DNA of 64,000 nucleotides from the NCBI GenBank assembly GCA_943787795.1, contig CALSNU010000001.1:1024001-1088000 (forward strand), read 5' to 3'. A program made the position numbers. The DNA comes from an uncultured bacterium (GTDB lineage: Bacteria; Planctomycetota; UBA1135; GCA-002686595). Positions 24,001-27,000 of this stretch are shown piece after piece (positions within the stretch are counted from its first letter, which is position 1; each line of letters opens with the position of its first letter).

Positions 24001-27000
24001 GCTTGCCCGGCTTCACGGGCAGTTCCTCGGCGACCCGACCCGGACGGACGTGATCACCTTCGATCTGCGGGAGGACGGAGCGCCGGATGAGCACGGGCCG
24101 GACGGGGAGATCTACGTGAGCGTCGAGCGAGCGCGGGAGGTGGCCGCTGGTCGCGGCGTTGAGCCGGCACGAGAGCAGGCTCTCTACGTGGTGCATGGCG
24201 CGCTGCACCTCGTCGGCTTCGACGACCATGACGCGCGTGATCGCGCCCTGATGCGCGCCGCCGAGGCCGCGGTCATGGGGCGCCTCGGCTACGCCGAGGA
24301 CCTCGGCGAGCACGAAGTCTGAGCCACATCTGCGCGCTATCGGAGGGACGCGGGACCCCCTCGCGACGGTTTTCGATCCAAAAAACTACCGGTCTTTCTG
24401 CGGGCTGTGCGCGCATGGATAAGTGCCTTCGAATGGCTTCAGAGGGCGATTCGACGCGCTTCTGGATGAGCACGAGTTGAGATCGAAAGGCGCCTAGCGT
24501 GGCGCTGGGGGAGGAACTGTTGAACGGGCTGGTCTCGTAGCGGTACCTACTACTGACAGAGGACACTTCGAGCCATCGCTCGGCGCCCCGGCGGACCGCC
24601 TGGTGACCTCCTTGAACCTGCACCTCACTCGAATTGACGCCCCAACCCGACCCCACTCCCGAGCCCGAGACGCCCCCTCGGACGTCGAGCAGCAGCGCGA
24701 CTTCCGCGGAAGCCGAGGCTGACCCGCTTGTTGAGATGGTGGACGCACTGTGGGCGGCCTTCCGATCCGAGCCGGGCGACGAGACGCGGAATGCGCTCGT
24801 CGAACACTACCAGCCGCTGATCAAGCAGATCGTTCGGCGGTTCGGAGCCCGACTCCCGCGGACCGTGGATCGCGGAGACCTGCTCACCGCGGGCAACGTG
24901 GGCCTCATCAGCGCAGTGCGCGGGTTCGACCCCGAGCGCGGGGTCCGCTTCGAGTCGTACTGCGAGCTGCGCGTGAAGGGCGCGCTCCTGGATGAGCTCC
25001 GCTCCCAGGACTGGCTGCCGCGTCCGTGGCGCCAGAAGATCGAACAGCAGAAGCGCACGGTGGAGCAGCTGCGGCGTGAGTGGGGGAGGAACCCCAACGA
25101 CAACGAGGTCGCGTCGGCGATGGGGTTCGACCTCGACGTCTACCAGCAGACCTTCGGCGTCGGGCTCCCCGGCACGCCAAGCGGGTCCATGCCCGCTGAC
25201 GACGGCGGCGAAGACGGCGGCACGGCCAGCCCCCTCGACATCGTCCAGGATCCGGGTGTGGACGCGCCGGGCGAACGGCTCTCCCGGGACGAGCTCATGA
25301 AGCTGGTCTCCCAGCGGATGTCCGATCAGGAGCGTCGCATCGTCTACCTGAAGTACTGGGAGGAGCTGCCAATGCGTGAGATCGGCGACCTCACGGGGCT
25401 CTCCGAGTCACGGGTTTGCAAGATCCACACGCGGCTCATCGAGCGTCTGCAGGATCGCTTCCGCGCGCACGAAGCCGACTCGCTGGTCTAGGCGCGCGCG
25501 GGGTCCGGGGGAAAGAGAGAGGGCCCGGCACCTCTCGGCACCGAGCCCCCCCAGGACTCCCGATCTCGAGCCACGAAGGCTCTCCGGGAACGCAAATCGA
25601 GCACGATCAGATCGCGTTCGACCCCCTTGCGTCCCGAACGGCGGAAACCGCCGGACCGAGGTGCGTAGGCGACGGAAGGGTCCCTGACCTCCCGACGTCG
25701 CACGACTCCTTATCCTCGACACCCGAACACGCCGTCCCCACGACGGCTCGGGATCCGCTCCTCCTCTCAAGAGACGCCCGTGTCCCCACACGACCGTCTC
25801 CCACATCACATCTCCCCTGACCGAAGCCGTGGGGGGACGCGAGTTCTACGGACCCGTCAGCGCCCTCGCCGCCGTGCTCCAACGAAGAGTCGCCGCTCAG
25901 CCCTGAGGCGTGACGCGGGTGGACCGTCGTGGTGGTGAAGCAAAGCATGGGAGCCGGTGGATCAGGCGGAGCCACCTCGAATCCCACCCCGGCAAAAGGA
26001 AACCGTCCCGGAGCCGGCCGAAGCCGACCCCGGTCCGGAGGGCAGATGAGGAACGGTTGTTCCTATCCGACCCACGGTCCTCAGTCCGAGGCGGGACCTT
26101 TGACGGTCCCGCGGCGCTCCTCGGACGACGATCCCTATGGGTCGGGCGGTCGACATTCGGAAACTCGGCTGCCCGCGAGGGGCCCGTGGCTTTGCGTCCC
26201 GGACTTGCGTCCGGTTTGCCTTTGTCGTGTCGCCGTTGGAGCGCCACAGGATAGCCAGGAAATTGCAATTGGCAAATGGGGGCGCGGGTTTGGGGGCGGA
26301 AACGTTTTCCAGTCGTCCCCATGTGTCGCGCTAGCATGGGATTACAAACCGATCATGTACGCCGAGCGGCGCGGGGATTGGGGGTCATGCGCAGGCGCAG
26401 CACAATCTCGCGCGCGGCTCTTCTCCGAAGCCGCGCCTCCTCCCTGACGATCTTCCTCCACGTGATCTCACTCTCCAGCCTGAGCCTCGCGGCGGCCGCC
26501 TCTGCGGGCCTCCTTGCCCTGCCGTCTCCCTCGGACATCTCCGCGGCCAGCTTCACGGGTGTCCAGCCGTCGCCGTCGACGCCTTCCTCTCCTTTGAGCC
26601 CTGGCGGCTCGGCTGGCCAGCCGACCCTGCCGGCCCCCGGCGCCCCGCTCGCAAGGGTAGAGCGGCCCCGGCTGGTGGTCCTGCTATCCGTGGATCAGAT
26701 GATCCCTGAGCAGTTCAGCCGGCTGCGTCCTGCCTTCACCGGGGGATTCGCGCGGCTCCTGCAGGAAGGGACGGTCTTCGACGCGGCGACCCTGGACTAC
26801 GTCCGAACGGAGACCGGGGCCGGCCACACGACGTTCTCGACCGGGTGCCTGCCCAGGAGCCACGGGATTGTCGGGAACGGGTTCTTCGACCAGGAGGCCG
26901 GCAGGTTCCGGTACTGCGTCGAGGACCTGGAGGCCGCCTCGATGACCTCCGCAGGTCGAATCGAGGCGCCTGCCACGGGACCCGGGGCGGGCCAGGGACA

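Follow-up and report, generated by a model that had tools for sequence, protein, structure and literature searches.

A c-di-GMP-I-type aptamer at the head of a conserved, predicted non-coding RNA in Planctomycetota

Described riboswitch and sponge RNAs, and the present locus

Among the closest described systems is EutX/Rli55 of Enterococcus and Listeria, an AdoCbl-riboswitch-containing sponge RNA in which the B12-riboswitch RNA sequesters EutV (PMC5821096). The locus described here resembles it in joining a 5' aptamer, a promoter of its own, a non-coding RNA and structured elements further 3', for which we propose action in trans, and also in that the orientation need not match that of the affected genes. 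The two differ in several respects: our RNA is of c-di-GMP type and about three times longer, it carries two to five modules of a UGGGGA hairpin and a GGAGGAG element where EutX/Rli55 has one ANTAR dual-hairpin site, and no conserved terminator was found adjoining the aptamer.

Bacteria take c-di-GMP as their main signal for passing from a motile to an attached state and back, and the life cycle of Planctomycetota comprises swarmer and stalked forms. To our knowledge, the RNA receptors described for this second messenger regulate the gene that follows them, in cis, or in a single case act on a ribozyme. At the protein level, the Streptomyces RsiG-(c-di-GMP)-WhiG switch uses an anti-sigma factor to link c-di-GMP to WhiG; the present locus likewise ties c-di-GMP to a FliA/WhiG-family sigma factor, but here and across Planctomycetota the link would be made at the level of RNA. 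CsrB, RsmY and RsmZ, in turn, are sponge RNAs for CsrA with multiple GGA motifs in hairpin loops and single-stranded linkers. Our RNA also shows GGA motifs in loops and linkers along its non-coding length, although its loop is UGGGGA and not ANGGA, a ligand sensor stands at its head, and CsrA was not found in the genome; a CsrA sponge was rejected on the grounds that PF02599 is absent from this genome (85% complete) and present in 1 of 61 family genomes.

Riboswitches acting in antisense are exemplified by AspocR and ubiG-mccBA. Our locus shares with them a riboswitch oriented against a neighbouring regulator gene; it differs in that the aptamer is separated from the gene by about 650 nt of structured RNA with a conserved terminator, and in that the RNA persists where the gene lies kilobases away. 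In one survey, no riboswitch class is as strongly enriched in antisense positions as that for c-di-GMP (PMC9943018). The concept of the antisense riboswitch is already published. Full-text searches of a literature collection found no paper describing either this non-coding RNA arrangement or the sense-leader arrangement before sigma genes that is treated below.

The DNA analysed is a stretch of 64,000 nt (the window); all coordinates are positions within it, and features on the minus strand are read from right to left. Because the aptamer heads a conserved, folded, non-coding RNA of about 730 nt with repeated purine-rich modules, the c-di-GMP signal probably acts through a free-standing regulatory RNA; neither plain antisense pairing nor a riboswitch of the usual sort would then describe it.

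The aptamer and its enclosing 5' domain

The 5' part of the RNA comprises the following features:

26248..26275, minus strand: sigma-70-type promoter (TTGCCA, 16-nt spacer, TATCCT), from a promoter scan and genus alignments
26119..26239, minus strand: 5' sensor domain with helices P0 and P1, which encloses the aptamer and a small hairpin A, from covariation
26234-26229 with 26129-26124, and CC 26239-26238 with GG 26120-26119, minus strand: outer helix P0
26227-26224 (CGAC) with 26154-26151 (GUCG), minus strand: P1
26155..26229, minus strand: c-di-GMP-I-type aptamer, best Rfam model RF03167 (68.6 bits)

A preliminary description of this DNA had reported a single RF03167 match that recurs throughout the genus, and this was borne out: the match at 26155-26229 on the minus strand (gathering cut-off 59) is the sole one in the genome as far as assembled, each of the 18 genus genomes has exactly one, 16 of them above the cut-off, and the 14 control genomes have none. 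The canonical model RF01051 (c-di-GMP-I / GEMM-I) finds the same site and no second one, at 65.7 bits over a cut-off of 35, and RF01786 (c-di-GMP-II) gave no match. In fold and sequence the aptamer passes both c-di-GMP-I models, and it departs from them in having no downstream ORF, no classical expression platform, and the additional P0 and hairpin A.

The same description had placed the aptamer in the GGC variant class, with a ligand not established, which finds no support here. The canonical A stands where the RF03167 consensus has G, at the ligand-contacting position in GACGC[G]AAG, which we take to be position 47, reportedly the one that gave the "GGC" class its name (Weinberg et al. 2017). 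This A recurs without exception in the 30 family loci and the 17 genus loci read, as well as in all 26 phylum aptamers readable by a script pattern (28 in total, two of them unreadable by it). Together with the score for RF01051, this renders the "GGC variant" label doubtful. The conserved core, GGC AAACC...GACGCAAAGCC...CCGAA, suggests that the aptamer may bind c-di-GMP selectively.

The promoter scan returned one site against 0.1 expected from shuffles, the promoter is kept in the genus alignments, and transcription would accordingly begin near 26241. As to the helices of the sensor domain, P0 is 97.2% paired across 36 sequences, 97.4% of cells are paired for P0 and P1 together, and P0 covaries, reading GGCGAC/GUCGUC in the genus of the window and GAUGAC/GUCAUC in other genera (U-A 23, C-G 11). 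Whole-structure scores of the sensor domain were reached by 0 of 500 shuffles. A genus-level consensus fold also offers a possible alternative helix between the 3' half of the aptamer and an invariant GUUCCUC..CUGCCC segment; it was not recovered in the family-wide fold and, being invariant, has no covariation to support it.

The structured RNA downstream of the aptamer

Beyond the sensor domain, the locus is laid out as follows:

25994..26118, minus strand: rest of block 1, from alignments and folding, with an invariant CCGAGGAGCGCC internal loop and hairpin B, hairpin C (GGAAC..GUUCC) and the CU-rich UCCUCAUCUGCCCUCC
26038-26003, minus strand: strong hairpin D, followed by UUUCCUUUU (26002-25994)
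25838..25993, minus strand: variable spacer, starting near a conserved CCCAUG (AUG 25948-25946)
25948-25607, minus strand: open frame of 113 codons that begins in the variable spacer, with no coding signature
25507..25837, minus strand: block 2, structured 3' domain, from covariation and strand asymmetry
25788-25783 and 25740-25735, minus strand: loops of UGGGGA-capped hairpins, with a third, UCAGGGA, near 25686
25764-25758 (GGAGGAG) and 25711-25706 (AAGGAG), minus strand: purine-rich elements of block 2
within block 2, minus strand: GUGC/GCAC and CUCGG/CCGAG helices
25511..25549, minus strand: hairpin resembling a terminator (25549-25520), trailed by the C/U-rich CUCUCUUUC, from covariation and a script scan
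24634..25491, plus strand: convergent FliA/WhiG-like sigma factor gene, divergent in sequence, its true start probably near 24730

Two conserved blocks on either side of a variable stretch had been described before; both are there, but the second starts earlier than was claimed. Block 1 consists of the aptamer and about 165-205 nt after it, and block 2 extends from about 310 to 645 nt past the aptamer end. Hairpin D (-29 kcal/mol) is conserved with compensatory changes, and its tail is U-rich solely in the subclade of the window, being C/U-rich elsewhere; in that subclade only, the hairpin and UUUCCUUUU (26038-25994) could yield a short form of about 250 nt. No conserved ligand-controlled terminator adjoins the aptamer in the family loci and no coding gene lies 3' of it, that is, we found no classical expression platform before a coding gene.

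The fold of block 2 comprises 81 pairs with 93.7% of cells paired, 40 of the pairs changing on both sides; 0 of 500 shuffles reached the observed pairing, and slid controls were 44-54% paired. The consensus energy is -225.8 for the sense strand versus -163.1 for the reverse complement, 63 kcal/mol better, with 321 versus 62 G-U pairs. The motifs are biased in the same way: across 45 loci, TGGGGA occurs 3' of the aptamer 132 times in sense and 3 times in antisense (10 and 5 in upstream controls), and GGAGGAG 46 and 5 times (9 and 5 upstream). TGGGGA caps a stem of at least 4 bp in 59 of 133 instances, compared with 77 of 2903 genome-wide. The repeated module is a single-stranded GGAGGAG (elsewhere GGAGGAGAUG) beside a UGGGGA-capped hairpin, and this alternation is strand-specific and conserved across one Planctomycetota family, in two to five modules per RNA; homologues of block 2 in other genera lie on the same strand. 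Searches with Rfam 15 found nothing beyond the aptamer, whether in the window (E<=1) or in 12 relatives (E<=0.5), and so no known RNA family for block 2. A crude hairpin scan of the genome found no further hairpin-plus-GGAGGAG module on any mRNA, and therefore gave no sign of targets that a decoy would mimic. Pairing of the G-rich loops with the C-rich 5' leader of the sigma gene was considered and rejected, the leader not being conserved outside the genus.

The transcript had been thought to point into the 3' end of the sigma gene; it does not simply run on into that gene, a covarying hairpin and C/U-rich tail preceding the stop codon. The tail ends at 25511, 20 nt short of the stop codon (25489-25491), and the hairpin is helix 13 of the block 2 fold, with four pairs changed on both sides. 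In this genome, with its weak U-tract, transcription may still pass into the last codons of the sigma gene; several relatives have runs of 7-8 U. A stricter scan of the window did not call the hairpin at 25511-25549, and the same scan found no intrinsic terminator for the sigma gene. By the script scan, a terminator-like site lies 440-830 nt downstream in nearly all of 46 loci, even where no sigma gene adjoins.

Twenty sequencing runs from 8 studies contain the stretch, 14 of them on record as RNA, and in four RNA runs from four studies 10 of 13 contig pieces fall within 25448-26294; these are unstranded, the runs were picked for containing the stretch, and such contigs do not establish the ends or strand of a transcript or its unity as a single molecule. 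One such unstranded RNA contig spans 25448-25674. We disregarded the absence of RNA contigs over the body of the sigma gene, as well as contig depth, because of how the runs were picked and because depth cannot rank regions.

Taken as predicted from sequence, the RNA has a promoter of its own, an aptamer built into a larger 5' domain by P0, and a terminator of its own, and what we find is the layout of a riboswitch-headed sponge RNA, namely a 5' aptamer on a separately promoted and separately terminated non-coding transcript. On our preferred, though tentative, reading, the product of the locus is an independent, structured RNA of about 730 nt that codes for no protein and whose modules would work in trans, as decoy or scaffold, after the manner of EutX/Rli55. 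C-di-GMP would bind the 5' domain; binding would alter either the amount of full-length RNA or the exposure of its CU-rich and purine-rich elements; and the repeated modules might then serve in trans as decoy or scaffold for a putative partner; candidates are CU-rich mRNAs, some protein that binds RNA, or 16S rRNA through its anti-Shine-Dalgarno end. The arrangement appears to have supplanted a cis riboswitch that other Planctomycetota keep before a FliA/WhiG-type sigma gene. A more specific proposal, possible but decidedly less secure, is that c-di-GMP at the 5' domain sets the availability of two to five modules resembling ribosome-binding sites, GGAGGAG(AUG) with a UGGGGA hairpin, which would draw the 30S subunit, or else a putative regulator of translation, off the mRNAs for sigma factors or motility, as the successor to that cis riboswitch.

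If true, this would extend the principle of the riboswitch-headed sponge RNA to second-messenger signalling, in a family-wide, separately terminated and apparently abundant RNA of about 730 nt, and a cyclic dinucleotide would for the first time be seen to gate a sponge RNA. The RNA is also a concrete bait for pulling down partners.

The sigma factor gene and alternative readings

The neighbouring gene had been called a convergent sigma-28/WhiG-like gene, rightly so: it has Pfam Sigma70 regions 2 and 4 (region 3 weak), its best NCBIfam model is FliA/WhiG TIGR02479 (182.2 bits, just below the cut-off of 189.6), and the genome contains three FliA/WhiG-like paralogues, this one included. As to the proposed RNA link between c-di-GMP and the sigma factor, the association itself is supported across the phylum, the aptamer type being tied to FliA/WhiG sigma genes, while antisense action as the main route is not. 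In other families of the phylum, the sister family included, aptamers of this type occur in sense orientation within the 5'UTR of another FliA/WhiG paralogue, and this sense-leader arrangement occurs before a FliA/WhiG-type sigma gene in at least 6 other Planctomycetota families, where it presents a direct, testable link at the RNA level from c-di-GMP to alternative sigma factors. A degenerate aptamer before the C2 sigma orthologue was sought in vain at E<=1, and the intergenic gap there is just 30 nt.

Control in cis by antisense or convergent transcription is the strongest competitor, though on balance we think it unlikely. Read-through past a weak terminator into the sigma gene, when the riboswitch allows it, or of sigma mRNA into block 2, would produce RNA duplexes or polymerase collision that tune the sigma factor. 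The sigma gene is indeed convergent within 1500 nt in 38 of 46 loci, with about 20 nt from terminator tail to stop codon here; the weak U-tract, the hairpin left uncalled by the strict scan, the RNA contig over 25448-25674 and the sigma gene's lack of an intrinsic terminator in that scan all fit, as do the presence of the same aptamer type in cis before a sigma paralogue elsewhere in the phylum and the enrichment of c-di-GMP riboswitches in antisense positions (PMC9943018). Against this, a covarying hairpin of terminator type precedes the sigma stop codon throughout the family and is followed by 7-8 U in several relatives, and about 330 nt of covarying structure with repeated modules would be left unexplained. 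Furthermore, in five loci the sigma gene is missing from the nearest 1500 nt: four have it convergent but 1.75-8.2 kb off and one has it on another contig, and the RNA is intact in the four relatives with the distant gene. Adjacency may also be partly inherited gene order, for the ybeY-sigma synteny block is conserved in 19 of 19 stretches. Given a terminator before the sigma stop codon and a gap of 1.75-8.2 kb in four relatives, obligatory antisense action on the sigma gene is unlikely.

It is improbable, in our view, that the locus encodes an allosteric large functional RNA, a ribozyme or architectural RNA in which c-di-GMP sets activity and not synthesis. The coupling of a c-di-GMP-II aptamer to a group I ribozyme in Clostridioides difficile is a precedent, and the embedding of the aptamer by P0 in a larger fold with no classical expression platform after it, the extensive covarying structure and the genus-level alternative helix at the 3' half of the aptamer would all suit such an RNA. 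Nevertheless, that helix is invariant and absent from the family-wide fold, Rfam 15 returned no ribozyme or intron family, and repeated simple modules resemble binding sites more than a catalytic core.

Less probable again is control of a small, fast-evolving or merely translated ORF, the 113-codon frame at 25948-25607 that begins at the conserved CCCAUG. Its AUG is conserved, 16 of the 18 loci in the genus have an open frame 113-159 codons long, and real genes here can begin at a comparable CCCAUG with no Shine-Dalgarno sequence before it. The tests for a coding signature were nonetheless all negative, in line with the earlier report of no credible ORF 3' of the aptamer. Variable sites fall evenly on the codon positions (51/50/50), the open frame shows the lowest share of synonymous changes, and GC by codon position is about.69/.64/.74 in the frame versus about.72/.50/.87 in real genes. 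Frame-shifting indels occur inside the conserved block 2, module spacing in many genera is not a multiple of 3, and conserved motifs stand in differing frames between genomes. Frame length is what composition predicts: the longest open frame averages 183 codons versus 156 in dinucleotide shuffles, with p<0.05 in 1 of 45 loci, and a long ORF was accordingly discarded as coding evidence, the shuffles giving frames of similar length. Nor did a conserved small protein emerge, since all-against-all blastp of stop-to-stop frames linked at most 4 other loci, and no protein was shared across genera. The view that what the riboswitch-type aptamer drives is a conserved non-coding transcript, and no gene, is supported.

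That block 2 belongs to the sigma gene as its 3'UTR or terminator region, as had been suggested, with the aptamer an orphan remnant, is very improbable: block 2 does abut the sigma stop codon, but the motif bias (132 versus 3), the energy difference of 63 kcal/mol and the G-U asymmetry (321 versus 62) assign it to the riboswitch strand, the terminator tail is oriented for that strand, and block 2 keeps with the aptamer when the sigma gene is kilobases distant.

An origin of the RNA from a pseudogenised sigma gene was likewise discarded, the best sense-strand tblastn match having an E value of 0.74. Additionally, in a 16-mer scan of genome contigs, which yielded mostly chance matches, the aptamer was present in 7 of the 80 loci retrieved; six of these seven are named Planctomycetota or Planctomycetaceae, and one only "bacterium".

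The aptamer and its ligand class

The Rfam scan of window positions 20000-32000 returned a single match, to RF03167, on the minus strand at 26155-26229 (68.6 bits; cut-off 59), and it is also the only RF03167 match in the genome (4.7 Mb, 85% complete). The canonical model RF01051 recognized this same site alone (65.7 bits; cut-off 35), and the search of the genome for c-di-GMP-II (RF01786) gave no match, in agreement with the preliminary description, which gives the genome a single c-di-GMP riboswitch. Its count of one copy in each of 18 genus genomes (16 above the cut-off), with none in 14 control genomes, was likewise reproduced. 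Across the family, matches appeared in 52 of 61 sampled genomes, 41 of them above the cut-off, and almost always singly.

Positions 20, 47 and 92 supply the three letters of "GGC", the middle one being a G in place of A47. When aligned to RF03167, the window aptamer departs from the model at GACGC[G]AAG: the bracketed base, a conserved G in the model and here an A, is what we take to be the name-giving position 47; the resulting CGCAAA was present in 30/30 family aptamers, 17/17 genus aptamers and all 26 readable phylum aptamers (28 in the set). On that reading of the name, the aptamer would be canonical at this position, and its assignment to the GGC class is thus upheld by the bit score but not by the nucleotide. 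The earlier argument that the ligand of the class is not established mostly loses its force, because the name-giving position would carry the canonical A and the RF01051 score exceeds its cut-off; judging from the sequence, c-di-GMP is the likely ligand.

A structured RNA with repeated modules

The aptamer is embedded in an RNA of about 730 nt with a promoter, covarying structure on the riboswitch strand, repeated modules, its own terminator and no coding signal.

Features of the RNA in the window
26275-26248, minus: promoter TTGCCA-16-TATCCT, predicted from sequence
3' of the P0 domain, minus: hairpin with invariant internal loop CCGAGGAGCGCC, conserved in alignments and folds
After the CCGAGGAGCGCC hairpin, minus: GGAAC/GUUCC hairpin, conserved in alignments and folds
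26038-26003, minus: hairpin D, strong, with a pyrimidine-rich tail (U-rich in the window's subclade only)
25837-25507, minus: block 2, a covarying fold that follows the variable spacer
25549-25520, minus, C/U tail to 25511: terminator-like hairpin that ends block 2

Family-wide folding revealed a helix, P0, in which nucleotides immediately 5' of the aptamer pair with others about 25 nt past it (GGCGAC/GUCGUC in the window's genus, GAUGAC/GUCAUC in other genera), enclosing the aptamer, a CGAC/GUCG P1 helix and a small hairpin. Overall, 97.4% of cells are paired, and the observed scores were reached by 0/500 shuffles. Diverging from the promoter lies an annotated PF01663 gene (type I phosphodiesterase / nucleotide pyrophosphatase; 26276-28258, plus strand), found upstream of the aptamer at 15/18 genus loci versus only 3/30 family loci; the first ~120 residues are not conserved, which casts doubt on the annotated start directly beside the -35 box.

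The block 2 consensus comprises 81 pairs, 40 of them with compensatory changes, and 93.7% of cells are paired, as against only 44-54% in slid controls; 0/500 shuffles equalled the fold. With a consensus energy of -225.8 versus -163.1 for the reverse complement, and 321 versus 62 G-U pairs, the folded strand is the riboswitch strand. Within 550 nt downstream of block 1 (the aptamer and the conserved stretch after it) at 45 loci, TGGGGA occurred 132 times in sense and 3 times in antisense (upstream controls, 10 and 5), and GGAGGAG 46 and 5 times (controls, 9 and 5). They alternate every ~50 nt, with 2-5 copies per locus, and TGGGGA caps a stem of 4 bp or more in 59/133 instances versus 77/2903 genome-wide. 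The linker GGAGGAGAUG, an RBS-like string, recurs in many genera. Apart from the aptamer, no Rfam family matched at this locus or in 12 relatives.

The terminator tail position holds 7-8 U in relatives, and a script scan found a terminator-like site in almost every one of the 46 loci, 440-830 nt downstream; a stricter scan did not call the 25549-25520 hairpin in the window.

The preliminary statement that no credible ORF follows the aptamer proved sound. Between two highly conserved domains, the variable spacer (25838-25993, minus) is constant in length among 8 close genomes despite divergence to ~50% identity, and starts at a CCCAUG conserved across most of the genus. A 113-codon frame begins at this CCCAUG (25948) and is open for 113-159 codons in 16/18 genus loci. 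Among 7 close genomes, its variable sites number 51/50/50 at the three codon positions, and the other frames all have a higher synonymous fraction; GC by codon position is ~.69/.64/.74, versus ~.72/.50/.87 in six neighbouring genes. Furthermore, genus members differ by 1-nt and 5-nt indels within the conserved block, the spacing of conserved motifs in many genera is not divisible by three, and stop-to-stop frames downstream of the aptamer yielded no protein shared across genera. Open frames are about as long as those that dinucleotide shuffles produce (183 codons versus 156), with p<0.05 at 1/45 loci.

Genes of this genome can begin in a ..CCCAUG.. context that lacks a Shine-Dalgarno sequence (contig C2, ~31714-31750; cf. 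window 25946-25951), and therefore the perfectly SD-like GGAGGAG repeats probably do not serve any ORF as an ordinary ribosome-binding site.

Relation to the convergent sigma gene

The convergent gene (24634-25491, plus strand) encodes Sigma70 regions 2 and 4 and, among NCBIfam families, best matches FliA/WhiG (TIGR02479; 182.2 bits, just below the cut-off of 189.6). An orthologue in a relative (G031:C1:273357-274100) contains one in-frame TAG. The RNA had been proposed to be antisense to this gene, and the convergent arrangement stands: 24/30 family and 16/18 genus loci, or 38 of 46 distinct loci, have the sigma gene in convergent orientation no more than 1500 nt away. The terminator tail, however, ends 20 nt short of the sigma stop codon. 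Of the remaining eight loci, three lie on contigs too short to tell; in the other five the sigma gene is still convergent at 1.75-8.2 kb (four loci) or sits on another contig (one), and all five retain modules and terminator. Moreover, ybeY precedes the sigma gene in 19/19 stretches examined, so that the adjacency of RNA and sigma gene belongs to a conserved gene order. Both observations argue against an obligatory cis antisense action, although the RNA may read through into the sigma gene in this genome, where the terminator has a weak U-tract and a single unstranded RNA contig (25448-25674) spans the terminator and the sigma gene end.

Eight metatranscriptome studies (marine, seawater, estuary or aquatic) supplied 20 runs containing the stretch, 14 recorded as RNA; 10 of 13 contig pieces fell within 25448-26294 (4 RNA runs, 4 studies). 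Since the runs were chosen for holding the stretch and the contigs are unstranded, this does no more than hint at transcription of the region.

Sigma paralogues across the phylum and a possible mode of action

RF03167-type matches occurred in 67/151 phylum genomes, and the named relatives with both aptamer and downstream motif are Planctomycetota MAGs. At 8/28 phylum loci, from five families (L169, L177, L185, L191, L193, L194, L195, L196), the aptamer occupies the leader of a FliA/WhiG-type sigma gene in sense orientation, as it does in both genomes examined of the sister family (L235, L236), making six other Planctomycetota families in all. Classical terminators were seen in L191 and L193, and an SD close before the start codon in L169 and L177. 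This genome has three FliA/WhiG-like paralogues: C2:30880-31713 (minus), C7:78113-78793 (plus), with three tandem flagellin genes (C7:64079-66818) ~11 kb away, and the window's gene, which sits on a long branch. The sense-led genes are orthologues of the C2 paralogue (59-66% identity, versus 34-38% to the window's gene), with which they cluster in the tree (support 88/91); no aptamer was found at the C2 paralogue itself, whose upstream gap is just 30 nt. Because the aptamer heads such sense leaders in other families, its link to FliA/WhiG-like sigma factors, as first proposed for the window, is real and phylum-wide, albeit through a different paralogue, and the window's arrangement of a sensor heading a long non-coding RNA appears to be derived.

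We infer that c-di-GMP would bind the 5' domain and that the repeated modules may act in trans as a decoy or scaffold, as suggested by the comparison with EutX/Rli55, which is likewise a riboswitch-headed non-coding RNA acting in trans (PMC5821096). Two candidates for signal transduction present themselves. Hairpin D may serve as a conditional terminator in the window's subclade. Alternatively, in the genus consensus fold, the aptamer 3' half (GGGCAG..GAG..GAAUG) pairs with an invariant GUUCCUC..CUGCCC ~130 nt downstream (approximately 26164-26184 with 26041-26060, minus), possibly forming an aptamer-disrupting switch helix, which covariation cannot support because both strands are invariant. 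CsrA, the obvious candidate partner of the modules, is disfavoured: it is absent from this genome and was found in only 1/61 family genomes.

Published precedents exist both for non-coding RNAs headed by a riboswitch (PMC5821096) and for antisense riboswitches (PMC9943018); the literature searched contained no description of this RNA, nor of a c-di-GMP riboswitch-sigma factor link for Planctomycetes.

Whereas the window's family has a single copy, five small, near-complete genomes of one phylum family (G107, G162, G186, G137, G206) each contain 7-28 RF03167-type aptamers, frequently accompanied by textbook terminators.
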